Positions 2,299 through 42,293 of a DNA stretch of 64,000 nt are shown one piece after another (position 1 is the first letter of the stretch; every line of letters starts with the position of its first letter). Below the pieces are notes generated by a model. The model was not told the origin of the DNA. It did not search any database and saw only the letters and a list, made by a program, of their open reading frames with translations. Origin of the DNA: Escherichia coli (lineage in GTDB: Bacteria; Pseudomonadota; Gammaproteobacteria; Enterobacterales; Enterobacteriaceae). The DNA lies in assembly GCF_030013205.1 (NCBI RefSeq), contig NZ_CP122648.1; one strand, written 5' to 3'. A program made the translations under genes and the position numbers.

Positions 2299-3761
2299 TC
2301 AATCGTCAACTTTCACGCCTGCTGTTGTGCAGCATTCTCGGCAGCACGACGCTGATTTCCGGCTGTGCCCTGGTACGTAAGGATTCTGCGCCTCATCAAC
2401 AGCTCAAACCGGAACAAATCAAACTGGCCGATGATATTCATCTTGCCAGCTCCGGTTGGCCGCAGGCGCAGTGGTGGAAACAACTCAATGACCCGCAGTT
2501 GGATGCCCTGATCCAACGGACGCTAAGTGGTTCACACACCCTCGCCGAAGCGAAACTGCGGGAAGAAAAAGCGCAGTCCCAGGCCGATTTGTTAGATGCT
2601 GGTTCACAGTTGCAGGTGGCAGCGTTAGGGATGCTCAACCGCCAACGTGTCTCGGCGAACGGCTTTTTAAGCCCTTATGCGATGGATGCGCCCGCACTGG
2701 GGATGGACGGGCCGTACTATACGGAAGCCACAGTCGGTTTGTTTGCCGGACTGGATCTCGATTTGTGGGGTGTGCATCGCTCAGCGGTTGCCGCTGCCAT
2801 TGGCGCGCATAATGCCGCGCTGGCAGAAACCGCAGCAGTAGAGCTATCGCTGACCACGGGCGTAGCGCAGCTTTATTACAGTATGCAGGCCAGCTATCAG
2901 ATGCTCGATCTGTTAGAACAAACTCGCGATGTGATTGATTACGCGGTAAAAGCGCACCAGAGTAAAGTGGCGCACGGTCTGGAAGCGCAAGTGCCTTTCC
3001 ACGGCGCGCGGGCACAGATTCTGGCGGTCGATAAACAAATTGCTGCCGTTAAAGGGCAAATCTCCGAAACGCGAGAATCTCTGCGCGCATTGATTGGCGC
3101 GGGAGCCAGCGATATGCCGGAGATCAGACCGGTGGCATTACCGCAAGTCCAGACCGGCATTCCGGCGACACTCTCTTATGAGTTGCTCGCCAGACGCCCG
3201 GATCTGCAAGCCATGCGCTGGTATGTTCAGGCGTCATTAGATCAGGTGGATTCCGCGCGGGCGCTGTTCTATCCGAGCTTTGATATCAAAGCGTTTTTCG
3301 GCCTGGACTCTATCCACCTGGATACCTTATTCAAAAAAACCAGTCGCCAGTTCAACTTTATCCCGGGTCTGAAATTGCCGCTGTTTGACGGTGGACGGTT
3401 GAATGCCAATCTCGAAGGCACTCGCGCCGCCAGCAACATGATGATTGAACGTTACAACCAGTCAGTGCTGAATGCGGTGCGCGACGTTGCCGTCAACGGC
3501 ACGCGTCTGCAAACGCTTAACGACGAGCGAGAGATGCAGGCTGAACGCGTGGAAGCAACGCGCTTCACCCAGCGCGCTGCCGAGGCCGCCTATCAACGCG
3601 GCTTAACCAGCCGCTTACAGGCCACCGAAGCCCGGTTGCCAGTGCTTGCCGAGGAGATGTCATTACTGATGCTGGACAGCCGCCGGGTGATCCAAAGCAT
3701 TCAGTTGATGAAATCGCTGGGCGGCGGGTATCAGGCAAGTCCCGTCGTCGAGAAAAAATAA
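2295..3761 (+). CDS. mdtP: Outer-membrane efflux factor MdtP (488 aa, lipoprotein signal LISGC)
   Basis: 488-aa ORF with N-terminal lipobox (..LISGCALV); start overlaps mdtO stop; OMF-family length. Confidence 0.9.
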   Translation: MINRQLSRLLLCSILGSTTLISGCALVRKDSAPHQQLKPEQIKLADDIHLASSGWPQAQWWKQLNDPQLDALIQRTLSGSHTLAEAKLREEKAQSQADLLDAGSQLQVAALGMLNRQRVSANGFLSPYAMDAPALGMDGPYYTEATVGLFAGLDLDLWGVHRSAVAAAIGAHNAALAETAAVELSLTTGVAQLYYSMQASYQMLDLLEQTRDVIDYAVKAHQSKVAHGLEAQVPFHGARAQILAVDKQIAAVKGQISETRESLRALIGAGASDMPEIRPVALPQVQTGIPATLSYELLARRPDLQAMRWYVQASLDQVDSARALFYPSFDIKAFFGLDSIHLDTLFKKTSRQFNFIPGLKLPLFDGGRLNANLEGTRAASNMMIERYNQSVLNAVRDVAVNGTRLQTLNDEREMQAERVEATRFTQRAAEAAYQRGLTSRLQATEARLPVLAEEMSLLMLDSRRVIQSIQLMKSLGGGYQASPVVEKK

Positions 3762-3769
3762 AATGTCTG

Positions 3770-3797
3770 CCGCGTGATGGCTGTCACGCGGTATTTC
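3770..3797 (+). terminator. Stem-loop (CCGCGTGA..TCACGCGG) after mdtP, putative intrinsic terminator
   Basis: 8-bp perfect inverted repeat at 3770-3777/3784-3791 followed by T-rich tract. Confidence 0.5.
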
Positions 3798-3800
3798 GTT

Positions 3801-3838
3801 TCGTCACGTCAAAACTGACGACAGCCTGTTTTTCGTCA
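3801..3838 (+). promoter_or_regulatory. Putative FhlA upstream activating sequence for fdhF
   Basis: Palindrome CGTCAAAACTGACG (3807-3820) flanked by repeated TTTCGTCA motifs, ~100 bp upstream of a sigma54 -24/-12 element. Confidence 0.4.
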
Positions 3839-3890
3839 GAGTTTTGAATAAATAGTGCCCGTAATATCAGGGAATGACCCCAAATAAAAT

Positions 3891-3906
3891 GTGGCATAAA
3901 AGATGC
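3891..3906 (+). promoter_or_regulatory. sigma54 (-24/-12) promoter of fdhF
   Basis: TGGCAT-aaaag-ATGCA with GG(3892-3893)-N10-GC(3904-3905) spacing, ~55 bp upstream of fdhF ATG. Confidence 0.6.
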
Positions 3907-3958
3907 ATACTGTAGTCGAGAGCGCGTATGCGTGATTTGATTAACTGGAGCGAGACCG

Positions 3959-6106
3959 ATGAAAAAAGTCGTCACGGTTTGCCCCTATTGCGCATCAGGT
4001 TGCAAAATCAACCTGGTCGTCGATAACGGCAAAATCGTCCGGGCGGAGGCAGCGCAGGGGAAAACCAACCAGGGTACCCTGTGTCTGAAGGGTTATTATG
4101 GCTGGGACTTCATTAACGATACCCAGATCCTGACCCCGCGCCTGAAAACCCCCATGATCCGTCGCCAGCGTGGCGGCAAACTCGAACCTGTTTCCTGGGA
4201 TGAGGCACTGAATTACGTTGCCGAGCGCCTGAGCGCCATCAAAGAGAAGTACGGTCCGGATGCCATCCAGACGACCGGCTCCTCGCGTGGTACGGGTAAC
4301 GAAACCAACTATGTAATGCAAAAATTTGCGCGCGCCGTTATTGGTACCAATAACGTTGACTGCTGCGCTCGTGTCTGACACGGCCCATCGGTTGCAGGTC
4401 TGCACCAATCGGTCGGTAATGGCGCAATGAGCAATGCTATTAACGAAATTGATAATACCGATTTAGTGTTCGTTTTCGGGTACAACCCGGCGGATTCCCA
4501 CCCAATCGTGGCGAATCACGTAATTAACGCTAAACGTAACGGGGCGAAAATTATCGTCTGCGATCCGCGCAAAATTGAAACCGCGCGCATTGCTGACATG
4601 CACATTGCACTGAAAAACGGCTCGAACATCGCGCTGTTGAATGCGATGGGCCATGTCATTATTGAAGAAAATTTGTACGACAAAGCGTTCGTCGCTTCCC
4701 GTACAGAAGGCTTTGAAGAGTATCGTAAAATCGTTGAAGGCTACACGCCGGAGTCGGTTGAAGATATCACCGGCGTCAGCGCCAGTGAGATTCGTCAGGC
4801 GGCACGGATGTATGCCCAGGCGAAAAGCGCCGCCATCCTGTGGGGCATGGGTGTAACCCAGTTCTACCAGGGCGTGGAAACCGTGCGTTCTCTGACCAGC
4901 CTCGCGATGCTGACCGGTAACCTCGGTAAGCCGCATGCGGGTGTAAACCCGGTTCGTGGTCAGAACAACGTGCAGGGTGCCTGCGATATGGGCGCGCTGC
5001 CGGATACGTATCCGGGATACCAGTACGTGAAAGATCCGGCTAACCGCGAGAAATTCGCCAAAGCCTGGGGCGTGGAAAGCCTGCCTGCTCATACCGGTTA
5101 TCGCATCAGCGAGCTGCCGCACCGCGCAGCGCATGGTGAAGTGCGTGCCGCGTACATTATGGGCGAAGATCCGCTGCAAACTGACGCGGAACTGTCGGCA
5201 GTACGTAAAGCCTTTGAAGATCTGGAACTGGTTATCGTTCAGGACATCTTTATGACCAAAACCGCGTCGGCGGCGGATGTCATTTTACCGTCAACGTCAT
5301 GGGGCGAGCATGAAGGCGTGTTTACTGCGGCTGACCGTGGCTTCCAGCGTTTCTTCAAAGCGGTTGAACCGAAGTGGGATCTGAAAACGGACTGGCAGAT
5401 TATCAGTGAAATCGCCACCCGTATGGGTTATCCGATGCACTACAACAACACCCAGGAGATCTGGGATGAGTTGCGTCATCTGTGCCCGGATTTCTACGGT
5501 GCGACTTACGAAAAAATGGGCGAACTGGGCTTCATTCAGTGGCCTTGCCGCGATACTTCAGATGCCGATCAGGGGACTTCTTATCTGTTTAAAGAGAAGT
5601 TTGATACCCCGAACGGTCTGGCGCAGTTCTTCACCTGCGACTGGGTAGCGCCAATCGACAAACTCACCGACGAGTACCCGATGGTACTGTCAACGGTGCG
5701 TGAAGTTGGTCACTACTCTTGCCGTTCGATGACCGGTAACTGTGCAGCACTGGCGGCGCTGGCTGATGAACCTGGCTACGCACAAATCAATACCGAAGAC
5801 GCCAAACGTCTGGGTATTGAAGATGAGGCATTGGTTTGGGTGCACTCGCGTAAAGGCAAAATTATCACCCGTGCGCAGGTCAGCGATCGTCCGAACAAAG
5901 GGGCGATTTATATGACCTACCAGTGGTGGATTGGTGCCTGTAACGAGCTGGTTACCGAAAACTTAAGCCCGATTACGAAAACGCCGGAATACAAATACTG
6001 CGCCGTGCGCGTCGAGCCGATCGCCGATCAGCGCGCCGCCGAGCAGTACGTGATTGACGAGTACAACAAGTTGAAAACTCGCCTGCGCGAAGCGGCACTG
6101 GCGTAA
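3959..6106 (+). CDS. fdhF: Formate dehydrogenase H (selenocysteine-containing, 715 aa) with in-frame UGA (Sec) at 4376-4378
   Basis: Two ORFs in the track (3959-4378 and 4427-6106) are in the same frame and separated only by a TGA; N-terminal 4Fe-4S Cys motif CPYCASGC; flanking protein ..CCARV-U-HGPSVAGL..; total 716 codons. Confidence 0.95.
4376..4420 (+). other. UGA-Sec codon plus SECIS stem-loop
   Basis: Immediately 3' of the in-frame TGA: CACGGCCCATCGGTTGCAGGTCTGCACCAATCGGTCGG can fold as a hairpin (CCATCGGTTG / CACCAATCGG arms), as expected for the bacterial SECIS. Confidence 0.75.
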
Positions 6107-6120
6107 TACAGTCCTTTCTA

Positions 6121-6147
6121 CAGCCTCCTTTCGGAGGCTGTTTTTTT
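6121..6147 (+). terminator. Intrinsic terminator after fdhF
   Basis: CAGCCTCC-tttc-GGAGGCTG hairpin followed by TTTTTTT. Confidence 0.8.
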
Positions 6148-6199
6148 ATCCATTCGAACTCTTTATACTGGTTACTCCCTACCCAATCGTATTATCAAA

Positions 6200-6889
6200 A
6201 TGAAAAAAATTATCGCATTGATGTTGTTTTTAACATTCTTTGCCCACGCGAACGACTCCGAGCCTGGCAGCCAGTATTTAAAGGCAGCAGAGGCCGGGGA
6301 CCGACGCGCACAATATTTTCTTGCCGACAGCTGGTTTAGCTCCGGCGATTTGAGCAAAGCCGAATATTGGGCACAGAAAGCCGCCGACAGCGGTGATGCT
6401 GATGCCTGCGCGCTGCTGGCGCAGATCAAAATCACCAATCCGGTCAGTCTGGACTATCCACAAGCAAAAGTTCTTGCAGAGAAAGCGGCGCAAGCGGGGA
6501 GTAAAGAAGGTGAAGTAACGCTGGCGCATATTCTGGTAAATACGCAAGCGGGTAAACCGGATTATCCAAAGGCGATTTCGCTGTTAGAAAACGCTTCGGA
6601 AGATCTGGAGAACGACTCTGCCGTCGATGCCCAAATGCTGCTTGGTTTGATTTACGCCAACGGCGTGGGCATTAAGGCCGACGATGACAAGGCAACCTGG
6701 TATTTCAAACGCAGCTCTGCGATTTCCCGAACCGGTTATTCCGAGTACTGGGCGGGAATGATGTTCTTAAACGGTGAAGAAGGTTTTATCGAGAAGAACA
6801 AGCAAAAGGCGCTGCACTGGTTGAATCTGAGCTGTATGGAAGGGTTTGATACCGGGTGTGAAGAGTTTGAAAAATTAACTAACGGTTAA
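6200..6889 (+). CDS. yjcO: Sel1-repeat (TPR-like) periplasmic protein YjcO (229 aa)
   Basis: Signal peptide MKKIIALMLFLTFFAHA; repeated A/G-rich Sel1-like motifs (AQYFLA..., GDADAC..., GVGIKAD...). Confidence 0.85.
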   Translation: MKKIIALMLFLTFFAHANDSEPGSQYLKAAEAGDRRAQYFLADSWFSSGDLSKAEYWAQKAADSGDADACALLAQIKITNPVSLDYPQAKVLAEKAAQAGSKEGEVTLAHILVNTQAGKPDYPKAISLLENASEDLENDSAVDAQMLLGLIYANGVGIKADDDKATWYFKRSSAISRTGYSEYWAGMMFLNGEEGFIEKNKQKALHWLNLSCMEGFDTGCEEFEKLTNG

Positions 6890-13561: not shown

Positions 13562-17349
<3,788 letters not shown>

Positions 17350-19712: not shown

Positions 19713-21005
19713 ATGTGCTACAATGGTTTAAATAATATGTTTTTCCCTCTTTGCCAGATTAACAATAACCACTCTGTCACAAGTCCATCACATACAAAGA
19801 AAACAAAATCAGATAATTACAGAAAACATCATAAAAACACGTTAATTGACAATAAAGCCCTCTCTCTTTTCAAAATAGATGATCATGAAAAAGTGATAGG
19901 CTTGATTCAGAAAATGAAAAGATTTTATGATAGTTTACCATCAGGAAAAATCACGAAAGAAACGGACAGGAAAATACATAAATATTTTATAGATATAGCT
20001 TCACATGCAAATAATAAATGTGACGATAGAATTACGAGAAGAGTTTACCTTAATAAAGATAAGGAAGTGTCCATTAAGGTAGTATATTTTATAAACAATG
20101 TCACCGTCCATAATAATACTATCGAAATCCCACAGACAGTAAATGGTGGTTACGATTTTTCACACCTTAGCCTGAAAGGTATCGTGATTAAAGATGAAGA
20201 TTTATCCAATTCGAATTTTGCAGGTTGCAGACTACAAAACGCTATTTTCCAGGACTGTAATATGTATAAAACGAATTTTAATTTCGCCATAATGGAAAAA
20301 ATACTTTTTGATAATTGTATTCTCGATGACTCAAATTTCGCTCAGATAAAAATGACTGACGGAACTCTAAATTCATGCTCCGCTATCCATGTTCAATTCT
20401 ACAATGCAGCAATGAATAGAGCCAATATTAAAAATACCTTCCTTGACTATTCAAATTTTTATATGGCGTACATGGTTGAGGTAAATTTTTATAAAGTAAT
20501 AGCGCCGTATGTTAATTTATTTAGAGCCGATCTTAGTTTCTCTAAACTCGATTTAATTAACTTTGAACATGCTGATCTGTCTCGCGTCAATCTGAACAAA
20601 GCAACTCTCCAGAATATAAACTTAATTGATAGCAAACTCTTTTTTACGCGGCTGACAAATACATTCCTTGAAATGGTTATATGTACCGGCTCTAATATGG
20701 CTAATGTTAATTTTAATAATGCCAATTTAAGCAATTGCCATTTCAACTGTTCTATTTTAACAAAAGCCTGGATGTTTAATACCCGTCTCTATCGGGTTAA
20801 TTTCGATGAGGCTAACGTGCAGGGAATGGGCATTTCCATTCTCCGTGAGGAGGAAAATATCCCCATTAATAGTGATACCCTGATAACACTACAGAAATTC
20901 TTTGAAGAAGATTGTACCTCTCATACTGGCATGTCACAAACTGAGGATAATATTCATGCAGTCGCTATGAAGATTACTGCAGATATTATGCGAGATGCAG
21001 ATTGA
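19713..21005 (+). CDS. yjcF: Pentapeptide-repeat protein YjcF (about 430 aa; start uncertain)
   Basis: AT-rich ORF with long runs of A(D/N)LSxxxLxxAxLxxxN-type pentapeptide repeats. Confidence 0.8.
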   Translation: MCYNGLNNMFFPLCQINNNHSVTSPSHTKKTKSDNYRKHHKNTLIDNKALSLFKIDDHEKVIGLIQKMKRFYDSLPSGKITKETDRKIHKYFIDIASHANNKCDDRITRRVYLNKDKEVSIKVVYFINNVTVHNNTIEIPQTVNGGYDFSHLSLKGIVIKDEDLSNSNFAGCRLQNAIFQDCNMYKTNFNFAIMEKILFDNCILDDSNFAQIKMTDGTLNSCSAIHVQFYNAAMNRANIKNTFLDYSNFYMAYMVEVNFYKVIAPYVNLFRADLSFSKLDLINFEHADLSRVNLNKATLQNINLIDSKLFFTRLTNTFLEMVICTGSNMANVNFNNANLSNCHFNCSILTKAWMFNTRLYRVNFDEANVQGMGISILREEENIPINSDTLITLQKFFEEDCTSHTGMSQTEDNIHAVAMKITADIMRDAD

Positions 21006-27744: not shown

Positions 27745-28026
27745 ATGGCTACCCTCACCACTGGCGTGGTTCTTCTTCGCTGGCAACTTCTTAGTGCCGT
27801 AATGATGTTTCTGGCCAGCACACTCAACATCCGTTTTCGTCGGTCTGATTATGTCGGGCTTGCAGTGATCAGCAGCGGTCTGGGCGTGGTTTCTGCCTGC
27901 TGGTTCGCAATGGGGTTGCTTGGTATCACAATGGCGGATATCACCGCCATCTGGCACAACATCGAGTCGGTGATGATAGAAGAGATGAATCAGACACCGC
28001 CACAATGGCCAATGATTTTGACTTGA
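27745..28026 (+). CDS. yjcB: Small inner-membrane protein YjcB (93 aa)
   Basis: Start MATLTTGVVLL; two hydrophobic helices; followed by a strong terminator. Confidence 0.75.
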   Translation: MATLTTGVVLLRWQLLSAVMMFLASTLNIRFRRSDYVGLAVISSGLGVVSACWFAMGLLGITMADITAIWHNIESVMIEEMNQTPPQWPMILT

Positions 28027-28124: not shown

Positions 28125-28631
28125 TCAGAACGGAATATCGTCATCAAAGTCCATCGGCGGCTCGTTAGACGGTGCTGCCGGAGCAGACTGCTGCGGGCGA
28201 GACTGCGCGCCGCCGCTGAACTGATTGCCGCCCTGCGGCTGACCACCACCGATATTGCCACCTGCAGGAGCGCCACCACCCTGACGACCACCCAACATCT
28301 GCATGGTGCCACCAACGTTCACCACGACTTCTGTGGTGTAGCGATCCTGACCGGATTGATCGGTCCATTTGCGGGTACGCAGCTGACCTTCGATATAAAC
28401 CTGAGAACCTTTACGCAGATATTCGCTGGCTACTTCTGCCAGTTTGCCGAACAGCACAACGCGGTGCCATTCAGTCTGCTCTTTCATCTCGCCGGTCGCT
28501 TTGTCACGCCAGGATTCGGAAGTAGCCAGCGTAATGTTGGCAACAGCGCCACCATTTGGCATGTAGCGTACTTCCGGGTCCTGACCCAGATTACCAACGA
28601 GAATAACCTTGTTTACGCCTCTGCTGGCCAT
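28125..28631 (-). CDS. ssb: Single-stranded DNA-binding protein SSB (168 aa here)
   Basis: OB-fold core [30 protein letters not shown]...; Gly/Gln/Pro-rich linker; acidic tip MDFDDDIPF. Confidence 0.95.
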
Positions 28632-28885: not shown

Positions 28886-31708
28886 ATGGATAAGATCGAA
28901 GTTCGGGGCGCCCGCACCCATAATCTCAAAAACATCAACCTCGTTATCCCCCGCGACAAGCTCATTGTCGTGACCGGGCTTTCGGGTTCTGGCAAATCCT
29001 CGCTCGCTTTCGACACCTTATATGCCGAAGGGCAGCGCCGTTACGTTGAATCCCTTTCCGCCTACGCGCGGCAGTTTCTGTCACTGATGGAAAAGCCGGA
29101 CGTCGATCATATTGAGGGGCTTTCTCCTGCCATCTCAATTGAGCAGAAATCGACGTCTCATAACCCGCGTTCTACGGTGGGGACAATCACCGAAATCCAC
29201 GACTATTTGCGTTTGTTGTTCGCCCGCGTCGGTGAGCCGCGCTGCCCGGACCACGACGTCCCGCTGGCGGCGCAAACCGTCAGTCAGATGGTGGATAACG
29301 TGTTGTCCCAGCCGGAAGGTAAACGCCTGATGCTGCTCGCGCCAATCATTAAAGAGCGCAAAGGCGAACACACCAAAACGCTGGAGAACCTGGCAAGTCA
29401 GGGTTACATCCGTGCTCGTATTGATGGCGAAGTCTGCGATCTTTCCGATCCGCCGAAACTGGAACTGCAAAAGAAACATACCATTGAAGTGGTGGTTGAT
29501 CGCTTCAAGGTGCGTGACGATCTTACCCAACGTCTTGCCGAGTCGTTTGAAACCGCGCTGGAGCTTTCCGGTGGTACCGCGGTAGTTGCGGATATGGACG
29601 ACCCGAAAGCGGAAGAGTTGCTGTTCTCCGCTAATTTCGCCTGCCCAATTTGCGGCTACAGTATGCGTGAACTGGAGCCGCGACTGTTTTCGTTTAACAA
29701 CCCGGCAGGGGCCTGCCCGACCTGTGACGGCCTTGGCGTGCAGCAATATTTCGATCCTGACCGCGTGATCCAGAATCCGGAACTGTCGCTGGCTGGCGGT
29801 GCGATCCGAGGCTGGGATCGCCGCAACTTCTATTACTTCCAGATGCTGAAATCGCTGGCAGATCACTATAAGTTCGACGTCGAAGCGCCGTGGGGCAGCC
29901 TGAGCGCGAACGTGCATAAAGTGGTGTTGTACGGTTCTGGCAAAGAAAACATTGAATTCAAATACATGAACGATCGTGGCGATACCTCCATTCGTCGTCA
30001 TCCGTTCGAAGGCGTGCTGCACAATATGGAGCGCCGTTATAAAGAGACGGAATCCAGTGCGGTACGCGAAGAATTAGCCAAGTTTATCAGCAATCGCCCG
30101 TGCGCCAGCTGCGAAGGGACGCGTCTGCGTCGAGAAGCGCGCCATGTGTATGTCGAGAATACGCCGCTGCCTGCTATCTCCGACATGAGCATCGGTCATG
30201 CGATGGAATTCTTCAACAATCTCAAACTCGCAGGTCAGCGAGCGAAGATTGCGGAAAAAATTCTTAAAGAGATTGGCGATCGCCTGAAATTCCTCGTTAA
30301 CGTAGGCCTGAATTACCTGACACTTTCCCGCTCGGCAGAGACACTTTCTGGCGGTGAAGCCCAGCGTATCCGTCTGGCGAGCCAGATTGGTGCGGGCCTG
30401 GTTGGCGTTATGTACGTGCTGGACGAGCCGTCTATCGGCCTGCACCAGCGCGATAACGAGCGCCTGTTGGGTACGCTTATCCATCTGCGCGATCTCGGTA
30501 ATACCGTGATTGTGGTGGAGCACGACGAAGACGCGATTCGCGCCGCTGACCATGTGATCGACATTGGCCCGGGCGCAGGTGTACACGGCGGTGAAGTGGT
30601 CGCAGAAGGTCCACTGGAAGCGATTATGGCAGTGCCTGAGTCGTTGACCGGGCAGTACATGAGCGGCAAACGCAAGATTGAAGTGCCGAAGAAACGCGTT
30701 CCGGCGAATCCGGAAAAAGTGCTGAAGCTGACAGGCGCACGTGGTAATAACCTGAAAGACGTGACGCTGACGCTGCCAGTCGGTCTGTTTACCTGCATCA
30801 CAGGGGTTTCAGGTTCCGGTAAATCGACGCTGATTAACGACACACTGTTCCCGATTGCCCAACGCCAGTTGAATGGTGCGACCATCGCCGAACCGGCACC
30901 GTATCGCGATATTCAGGGGCTGGAGCATTTCGATAAAGTGATCGATATCGACCAAAGCCCAATTGGTCGTACTCCGCGTTCTAACCCGGCGACCTATACC
31001 GGCGTGTTTACGCCTGTGCGCGAACTGTTTGCGGGCGTACCGGAATCCCGTGCGCGTGGTTATACGCCAGGACGTTTCAGCTTTAACGTCCGTGGCGGAC
31101 GCTGCGAAGCCTGTCAGGGCGACGGTGTGATCAAAGTGGAGATGCACTTCCTGCCGGATATCTACGTACCGTGCGACCAGTGCAAAGGCAAACGCTATAA
31201 CCGTGAAACGCTGGAGATTAAGTACAAAGGCAAAACCATCCACGAAGTGCTGGATATGACCATCGAAGAGGCGCGTGAGTTCTTTGATGCCGTACCTGCA
31301 CTGGCGCGTAAGCTGCAAACGTTGATGGACGTTGGTCTGACGTACATTCGCCTGGGGCAGTCCGCAACCACACTTTCTGGTGGTGAAGCCCAGCGCGTGA
31401 AGCTGGCGCGTGAGCTGTCAAAACGCGGCACCGGGCAGACGCTGTATATTCTTGATGAGCCGACCACCGGTCTGCACTTCGCCGATATTCAGCAACTGCT
31501 CGACGTACTGCATAAACTGCGCGATCAGGGCAACACCATTGTGGTGATTGAGCACAATCTCGACGTGATCAAAACCGCTGACTGGATTGTCGACCTGGGA
31601 CCGGAAGGCGGCAGTGGCGGCGGCGAAATCCTCGTCTCCGGTACGCCAGAAACCGTCGCGGAGTGCGAAGCTTCGCATACGGCACGCTTCCTCAAGCCGA
31701 TGCTGTAA
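28886..31708 (+). CDS. uvrA: Excinuclease ABC subunit A, UvrA (940 aa)
   Basis: 940-aa ORF with two ABC ATPase modules ([10 protein letters not shown] and [10 protein letters not shown] Walker A), zinc-finger CxxC pairs, LSGGEAQR signatures. Confidence 0.95.
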
Positions 31709-33704: not shown

Positions 33705-34247
33705 ATGGTGACTAATTTTATTACTCTCGAAGGAGATGATGATATGAATATATCATATGTGAATAGCAACAAAATGACATCTTTACCTGTTGAGCTAGAT
33801 GCACTAAATAATAAAGATATCTCTTATTCCAAAGATTTTTCTTATGCCAAAGATTTCTTTTTATATATAGAAACACAGTTAAAAATTGCAAAAGATTTTT
33901 GTAGACCAGGAGAGGAAGTATCAAGATCTATTGCAAATAAAGTTTTTCATGCATTTATTGATTTAGTTAACAAAATCAGAGGCAAGAAAGATTGTATGTA
34001 TATTTGCACACTTTGCTGTTTTGCCGAGGAGGTTAAAGGTGATTATTCTCATTACAGGACCTTTTTATTTGATATTGGTAATCAATATAAGGTTAAACTT
34101 ACACAAAGCGGAAAAAAAGAGTTCTCTTTAACATTAGAATTTAACGATACTATAATTGAATCTCAGAAAGTCACAGGCAATAAGGCAAAGCATATTCTTG
34201 AGGATATAGAAATATTCTATCGTAACAAACCCGATACTTATTATTAA
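33705..34247 (+). CDS. Hypothetical protein in an AT-rich islet (start may be MNISYVN at 33744)
   Basis: 180-aa ORF in a visibly AT-rich ~1.1-kb segment between aphA and tyrB; no recognisable motif. Confidence 0.45.
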   Translation: MVTNFITLEGDDDMNISYVNSNKMTSLPVELDALNNKDISYSKDFSYAKDFFLYIETQLKIAKDFCRPGEEVSRSIANKVFHAFIDLVNKIRGKKDCMYICTLCCFAEEVKGDYSHYRTFLFDIGNQYKVKLTQSGKKEFSLTLEFNDTIIESQKVTGNKAKHILEDIEIFYRNKPDTYY

Positions 34248-41195: not shown

Positions 41196-42293
41196 ATGGC
41201 GTACTATAACATAGAGAAACGACTAAAATCCGATGGCACACCACGCTATCGCTGTAATGTGATTATCAAAGAAAAAGGTGTTATCACTTACAGGGAAAGC
41301 AAAACATTCCCTAAACATGCTCATGCCAAAACATGGGGAACACAGAAAGTGATGGAATTAGATCTATATGGCATTCCATCATCAAATGCAGTTGACGGAC
41401 TTACAGTCCGTGACTTACTACACAAATATTTAAATGACCCAAATGCCGGAGGTAAAGCAGGCCGTACTAAAAGATATGTGCTGGAACTGCTTATGGATAG
41501 TGACATCTCCGCGATCAAACTATCTGAACTGACAGAAAATGACGTAATTGAACATTGCAGGCTAAGAAACAACGCTGGTGCAGGTCCAGCAACAGTCAGC
41601 CACGATGTTAGTTATCTTGGCAGTGTTCTGGATGCGGCCAAACCTGTATACGGAATTAATTACACATCAAACCCGGCGAAAAGCGCTCGCCCATATCTAC
41701 TTAAACTTGGTTTGATTGGTAAATCAAACCGTCGTAATCGTAGACCAGCATCTGATGAACTGGACATGCTCATTGAAGGCCTTCAACAACGATCTACTCA
41801 TAAATGCTCAAAAATTCCGTTCGTTGATATCCTCAAATTTTCTGTGTGGTCCTGTATGCGGATCGGAGAAGTATGCCGGTTACGATGGGAAGATCTCGAC
41901 CAGGAACAAAAATCTATACTCGTAAGAGACAGGAAAGATCCACGCAAAAAGGAAGGCAACCACATGAAAGTAGCCTTGCTTGGGGAAGCCTGGGATATCG
42001 TCCAACGACAGCCCAAAAAATCGGAATTCATTTTTCCATATAACAGCACTTCTGTTACTGCAGGATTTCAGAGGGTAAGAAGCAAATTAGGTATTAAAGA
42101 TCTGCGATACCATGATTTGCGTAGAGAAGGGGCAAGTCGCTTATTTGAGGCTGGTTTTAGTATTGAGGAAGTCGCTCAGGTTACAGGGCATCGTTCATTA
42201 AACGTGCTATGGCAGGTATATACCGAACTGTATCCGAAATCTTTACATAATCGTTTTGAAGAGCTCCAAAGGAGCAGAAATAAGACCTCTTGA
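41196..42293 (+). CDS. int: Tyrosine site-specific integrase (dusA-associated type, 365 aa)
   Basis: C-terminal catalytic domain with R..HxxR..Y layout (..MRIGEVCRLRWEDL.., ..RYHDLRREGASR.., ..VTGHRSLNVLWQVY..); located next to dusA 5' end. Confidence 0.9.
   Translation: MAYYNIEKRLKSDGTPRYRCNVIIKEKGVITYRESKTFPKHAHAKTWGTQKVMELDLYGIPSSNAVDGLTVRDLLHKYLNDPNAGGKAGRTKRYVLELLMDSDISAIKLSELTENDVIEHCRLRNNAGAGPATVSHDVSYLGSVLDAAKPVYGINYTSNPAKSARPYLLKLGLIGKSNRRNRRPASDELDMLIEGLQQRSTHKCSKIPFVDILKFSVWSCMRIGEVCRLRWEDLDQEQKSILVRDRKDPRKKEGNHMKVALLGEAWDIVQRQPKKSEFIFPYNSTSVTAGFQRVRSKLGIKDLRYHDLRREGASRLFEAGFSIEEVAQVTGHRSLNVLWQVYTELYPKSLHNRFEELQRSRNKTS

Follow-up and report, generated by a model that had tools for sequence, protein, structure and literature searches.

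A repeat-bounded 30-bp deletion in the ssb linker of porcine Escherichia coli ETEC4079 and its place among recurrent linker-length alleles of Escherichia and Shigella

The ssb gene of Escherichia coli ETEC4079, an isolate from pig faeces (Belgium), carries a repeat-mediated 30-bp deletion, which is private to this strain and derives, through a single event, from the wild-type allele of the clone to which the strain belongs. The gene was analyzed within a 64,000-nucleotide stretch of the ETEC4079 genome (hereafter, the window), and its product corresponds to RefSeq WP_096955297.1, annotated as SSB1. Of the explanations considered, a genuine 30-bp loss by repeat slippage within the strain's own clone, with a nearly neutral effect, is by far the best and, in our opinion, very probable. 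Both the 168-aa protein, for which a RefSeq accession exists, and the mechanism were known before. The features of the gene and of its surroundings are presented in Table 1.

Table 1. Location of ssb, its coding subregions and other features of the analyzed window
Feature	Position in the window	Strand	Basis or remarks
ssb (ssb1) CDS	28125..28631	-	507 bp including the stop codon, 168 aa; ORF list and NZ_CP122643.1 annotation
Coding region of the OB-fold DNA-binding and tetramerisation domain, intact	28293..28631	-	residues 1-135 100% identical to 1eqq
Coding region of the disordered linker	28155..28292	-	46 residues vs 56; residues 114-159 (Met=1)
Deletion junction, sole remaining copy of the 14-bp repeat CAGCCGCAGGGCGG (coding strand)	28228..28241	-	sister-genome comparison
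Coding region of the acidic tip MDFDDDIPF, intact	28128..28154	-	translation; identical to 1eqq residues 170-178
yjcB	27745-28026		
uvrA	28886-31708	+	divergent from ssb
espX5	19713-21005		between actP and yjcE
Small ORF	33744-33966		annotated as a frameshifted pseudogene
Lambdoid prophage	41196-64000		adjoining dusA
Prophage tyrosine integrase	41196-42293		
Prophage tape-measure gene	52465-53223		truncated
Prophage terminase gene	53288-54079		truncated
Prophage LPS core heptose(II)-phosphate phosphatase gene	55058-55633		
Prophage tRNA-Gly	57201-57275		
Prophage AraC-family regulator	57693-58544		

The SSB protein of ETEC4079 was compared with solved structures, and it matched the 178-aa E. 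coli SSB (PDB 1eqq/4mz9), i.e., the reference that an earlier note on this DNA had given, correctly, as being 10 residues longer. Residues 1-135 of the ETEC4079 protein are identical to chain residues 1-135 of 1eqq/4mz9 and its residues 130-168 correspond to chain residues 140-178, so that exactly 10 residues are absent. At the DNA level, one 30-bp gap in the alignment with the wild-type E. coli ssb (537 bp, WP_000168305.1) explains the whole difference. The missing block is WGQPQQPQGG, the one named in the earlier note; it spans residues 136-145 (Met=1) and includes the PQQP motif (residues 139-142, a PxxP motif) and the fourth tryptophan of SSB (Trp135 in mature numbering).

The core and the acidic tip were likewise found intact, as had been claimed: identity with 1eqq is complete over residues 1-135 and the sequence MDFDDDIPF is unchanged. 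This tip of SSB is the docking site for SSB-interacting proteins. The features of the SSB family are present, namely the OB fold, the tip ending with Pro-Phe, and a Gly/Gln/Pro-rich linker above the minimal functional length, and PF00436 is listed for a protein identical to the ETEC4079 SSB. The limits of the linker in Table 1 were computed from the ORF using the published domain boundaries, which in mature numbering are 1-112 for the DNA-binding domain, 113-168 for the linker, and 169-177 for the tip (PMC7145534). Judging by its identical domains and by larger deletions described in the literature, the 168-aa protein would form tetramers, bind ssDNA and recruit its partners. The gene occupies its usual chromosomal housekeeping position, with the divergent uvrA and with yjcB in its neighborhood.

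The 25-kb segment of the window between positions 16000 and 40999 was used as a query, and a set of pig ETEC genomes matched it over 25,030 bases as against 25,000 in the query. This set includes ETEC1748, which comes from the same Belgian project, and the Korean genome K_EC180, and both are identical to the segment except for 30 extra bases in ssb. Counted from its left end, the segment agrees with the two genomes over 12,242 bases, and counted from its right end, over 12,772 bases. These lengths sum up to 25,014 for the 25,000-bp query, and the 14-base overlap of the two identical stretches thus reveals a perfect 14-bp direct repeat at positions 28228-28241, within the interval (28200-28260) to which the earlier note had assigned the loss. 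The repeat, CAGCCGCAGGGCGG, is present twice in the sister genomes, 30 bp apart (in the wild-type ssb, the copies start at positions 391 and 421), and only once in ETEC4079, the deleted length being equal to the repeat period. The previously proposed location of the deletion between direct repeats is therefore confirmed, and in the parental allele these repeats are perfect.

The other 507 positions of ssb are identical (0 SNPs) to the wild-type allele of strain 7/2 (locus L011). Another wild-type allele, 4 SNPs off, was rejected as the closest parent, as its position resulted from the ranking of gapped hits in BLAST and a 0-SNP allele exists. The wild-type allele with a C in the second repeat was found in 575 of the 5,426 complete genomes searched, and in all three such alleles that were read this C goes with the perfect 14-mer; in one other wild-type allele read, the repeat is perfect over 11 bp, or matches at 13 of 14 positions. 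Since there is no foreign SNP, and since the ETEC4079 gene is the allele of its own clone minus 30 bp, a single event, private to ETEC4079 among its near-identical sisters, accounts for the observed difference.

In the most likely mechanism, the two perfect 14-bp copies would misalign (slipped-strand mispairing) or the template would be switched during replication, with the loss of one repeat and of the 16 bp between the copies. The deletion removes residues 136-145 in frame and shortens the linker from 56 to 46 residues, leaving the OB fold and the acidic tip untouched, and the resulting protein is expected to work essentially like the wild type, as the linker is mainly a length-tolerant spacer. 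The replication slippage suggested in the earlier note is consistent with our results, and we infer it from the deletion product, i.e., from a 30-bp loss that is bounded by repeats and leaves one copy behind. The features typical of deletions between short direct repeats are found here: the endpoints lie within the repeats, one copy is kept, the length equals the period, the event recurs, and a reciprocal duplication exists. Template switching as a route to short-repeat deletions has been reviewed (PMC7145654).

Hairpin-assisted slippage and phase variation were also considered. For a possible hairpin bridging the two repeats, a 71-nt stretch from the parental allele was folded as either strand, and the folds were no better than those of shuffled sequences (z = -1.67 and -1.36; 10 and 16 of the 200 shuffles, respectively, were equally good), so that secondary structure lends no support. 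A phase-variable locus was rejected, as there are only two repeat copies with 16 bp of unique sequence between them, the change is in frame and gives no on/off switch, and the deletion is rare (at least 2 of the 5,426 genomes). Moreover, only a single repeat copy is left after the deletion, and slippage is thus unable to restore the lost bases.

The occurrence of the deletion was examined with junction-specific 38-mers in 5,426 complete E. coli genomes, a search that misses alleles with a SNP inside the 38-mer and thus gives a lower bound. The junction was present in at least two genomes, i.e., ETEC4079 (GGGC|GGC) and the Japanese human isolate 26_141088 (GGGT|GGC), and the allele is thus rare among them. 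In a collection of 15 billion proteins, the exact 168-aa protein was found on at least 80 contigs (raw contigs, as in all counts given below, including clonal relatives and sampling bias), indexed in 205 blocks, and the names attached to them are E. coli and E. albertii.

Eight loci encoding this protein were fetched, and all of them contain the same deletion in different synonymous backgrounds, with both junction types represented. Over the 507 bp of ssb, 4-32 SNPs separate them from the window, and in the adjacent 3 kb of uvrA the loci mutually differ by 30-239 SNPs, except for the pair L005/L008 (16 SNPs). The uvrA sequences of this pair are approximately 7.7% diverged from those of the other loci, and the two loci probably represent the E. 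albertii lineage. One of the loci (L004) shows no difference from the complete genome of 26_141088 along 6,038 bp, and further similar contigs exist, so the deletion allele is inherited within a natural clone. The many backgrounds, together with this inheritance, argue that the allele is real and viable. Judging from the synonymous SNPs, the 168-aa deletion recurs independently on at least eight backgrounds.

The surroundings of ssb vary among these loci. In L005/L008 (ssb at 3001-3507, yjcB at 3955-4236), there are about 350 bp more between ssb and yjcB than in E. coli. In L010, an E. coli carrier of the deletion, a phage-type integrase and genes of unknown function (positions 3666-6507) are placed directly downstream of ssb, where they replace yjcB.

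The linker DNA of the wild type was also listed for all in-frame direct repeats of at least 8 bp. Among these, the 11-bp pair CAGCCGCAGGG, the one behind the ETEC4079 deletion, is the longest, and each of the other natural linker-length alleles is predicted from a repeat of 8-11 bp. The predicted products were looked up as exact matches in the K-12 protein background, for which the wild-type count is at least 1,000. Seven of the nine other repeat-mediated products were present as exact proteins: the reciprocal 30-bp duplication (188 aa; 129 contigs), a 21-bp deletion (171 aa; 209 contigs; Shigella boydii, B2TX90) and its reciprocal (185 aa; 13 contigs), a 30-bp deletion (168 aa; 3 contigs) and a 30-bp duplication (188 aa; 1 contig) from a different repeat pair, a 60-bp deletion (158 aa; 2 contigs), and a 78-bp deletion (152 aa; 3 contigs). 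No exact match was found in the protein collection for the duplications of 60 bp (198 aa) and 78 bp (204 aa). As a control, ten 10-aa deletions spread along the linker and flanked by at most 2 bp of microhomology were looked up in the same exact manner, and none of the ten was found in the collection. Thus, of the 10-aa linker deletions looked up, the collection contains just two, those flanked by the most extensive homology (11 and 8 bp), as a repeat-driven mutational origin predicts.

In the DNA of eight loci encoding the 188-aa protein, which represent six distinct alleles, the 30-bp unit lost in ETEC4079 is exactly duplicated in tandem. In two of the 188-aa loci, L020 and L023 (ssb at 1001-1567), both units of the duplication contain the proline codon CCA instead of CCT, which indicates that the duplication arose within that allele background. 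The junction 38-mers of the 30-bp duplication (C-type and T-type) and of the 21-bp deletion had no hits in the 5,426 complete genomes, a positive control being available for the C-type junction; the latter was confirmed as correct in draft and GenBank genomes, and its zero applies to the 5,426-genome collection. In the open-access literature searched, no description of natural slippage alleles of the ssb linker was found. As far as can be read from the collected sequences, the linker DNA of ssb is a small natural slippage hot spot giving recurrent linker-length alleles in Escherichia and Shigella.

The most serious rival is an assembly artefact, in which the 537-bp wild-type gene would be the real one and the 30 bp would have been dropped during Nanopore assembly or polishing; we consider it quite unlikely. 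The ETEC4079 genome is indeed Nanopore-only, without Illumina polishing (R9.4.1, Bonito, Trycycler, and medaka; BioProject PRJNA917806; PMC10151945), and none of its near-identical sister genomes shares the deletion. However, the surrounding 25 kb shows no other difference from an independent Korean genome and from a genome of the same project, which indicates a high local accuracy of the consensus, and sister genomes produced with the same pipeline carry the wild-type ssb. Furthermore, many assemblies that were produced independently, by other projects and from other lineages, contain the identical deletion, and repeats of 14 bp are too short to be collapsed in a long-read assembly. The known errors of R9.4.1 data are 1-2-bp indels in homopolymers, and a clean, in-frame, repeat-bounded loss of 30 bp is unlike them.

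Elsewhere in the window, the small ORF annotated as a frameshifted pseudogene (Table 1) has the same annotation in ETEC1748 and K_EC180, and its frameshift is thus inherited and not an assembly error. The gene espX5 encodes a pentapeptide-repeat protein resembling type III secretion system (T3SS) effectors. The lambdoid prophage encodes, apart from the features listed in Table 1, a DinI-like protein, tail fibre proteins, and gpJ, and the truncation of its tape-measure and terminase genes makes it look degraded. The accession of the DusA protein differs from that of the sister strain ETEC1748, which is consistent with integration of the prophage at the 5' end of dusA.

As for the functional consequences, the claim that the shortened protein is probably functional gains support from engineered alleles. 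Chromosomal ssb mutants with the deletions Δ151-166, Δ139-164, and Δ130-166 resembled the wild type in growth, in SOS levels, and in how well they resisted UV, ciprofloxacin, and mitomycin C (Bonde et al. 2023, PMC10164576), and two of these deletions (Δ130-166 and Δ139-164) cover the segment lost in ETEC4079, Δ130-166 in full. In the same study, Δ120-166 was the sole slightly impaired deletion and was rescued by ten scrambled residues, about 20 linker residues (those left in Δ130-166) were enough for wild-type behavior, and the PxxP motifs were dispensable in vivo (PMC10164576). In a 2019 Nucleic Acids Research paper, RecO, PriA, PriC, and chi were found to bind the tip alone, the linker and its PXXP motifs contributing nothing (PMC7145534). 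In vitro, a role of the linker in cooperative ssDNA binding and in condensation or phase separation has been described in the literature.

As WGQPQQPQGG is a subset of the residues removed in Δ130-166, most likely its loss has no measurable phenotype, and by analogy with the engineered alleles the ETEC4079 allele is probably near-neutral. Taking into account the in vitro roles of the linker, the loss of 10 residues may still have a subtle quantitative effect on SSB. For ETEC4079 itself, the deletion would mean a slightly shorter and, by the same analogy, almost certainly functional SSB, and it has little import for this genome.

A second rival assumes adaptive tuning, i.e., that the shorter linker and the loss of PQQP and Trp135 alter cooperativity, condensation, or partner binding, and that the recurrence of the allele reflects selection. 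The linker does influence cooperativity and phase separation in vitro, the same 168-aa allele is found on at least eight backgrounds and persists within at least one clone, and the 7-aa linker deletion is present on as many as 209 contigs named Shigella boydii. Nevertheless, we regard this explanation as very improbable: the duplication of 10 residues is about as common as their deletion (129 vs 80 contigs), which is more in line with mutation and drift than with directional selection on length, the 168-aa allele is rare (at least 2 of the 5,426 complete genomes), only repeat-flanked variants are seen, and much larger deletions over the same segment are phenotypically silent, with PxxP motifs not needed in vivo (PMC10164576). 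A broader version, in which the whole linker-length series (-26, -20, -10, -7, +7, and +10 residues) would tune SSB subtly, with some members retained by selection (e.g., the 171-aa form of S. boydii), seems to us unlikely.

Although the deletion allele circulates in other Escherichia lineages and E. coli recombines, acquisition of an existing deletion allele by homologous recombination is extremely improbable and, in the absence of any foreign SNP, excluded in practice, since the ETEC4079 gene equals the wild-type allele of its clone minus 30 bp, its flanks (12.2 and 12.8 kb) are identical to those of the sisters, and all other sampled deletion alleles differ by 4-32 SNPs within ssb.

A slippage deletion of nearly neutral effect, read together with the other linker-length alleles, shows that SSB, although essential for replication, has repeatedly gained and lost 7-26 linker residues in wild populations and tolerates these changes. 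These natural alleles independently support the view of the linker as a length-tolerant spacer (Bonde et al. 2023), and the observation that all indels seen are repeat-flanked indicates that mutation bias shapes the linker variants that exist. For genome annotators and cgMLST schemes, this means that ssb alleles of 507, 516, 558, and 567 bp are genuine variants, not errors, and for biophysicists it may be of use that the 168-aa variant lacks one of the four tryptophans of SSB.

Compared with the SSB of E. coli K-12 (SSB_ECOLI, 178 aa, WP_000168305.1), encoded at the same locus, the ETEC4079 protein is identical in all residues that it has kept, but it lacks residues 136-145 and thereby has a linker of 46 instead of 56 residues, one PxxP motif (PQQP) less, and no fourth tryptophan. 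It shares the gene and the linker region with the other length alleles of Escherichia and Shigella (188, 171, 185, 158, and 152 aa), which differ in the repeat pairs involved and in size, the ETEC4079 form being the deletion product of the longest pair. The classic examples of spontaneous deletions between short direct repeats are the deletion hot spots of lacI, and the ssb deletion resembles them in having its endpoints within the repeats, one copy kept, a length equal to the repeat spacing, and reciprocal duplications; unlike the lacI hot spots, it occurs as natural variation of an essential gene and is tolerated because its target encodes a disordered spacer. Finally, the engineered deletions Δ130-166, Δ139-164, Δ151-166, and Δ120-166 (Kozlov/Lohman; Bonde et al. 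2023) are, similarly to the ETEC4079 allele, in frame and confined to the linker, with the tip kept, whereas the natural deletion is smaller (10 vs 16-47 residues) and arose spontaneously at direct repeats.
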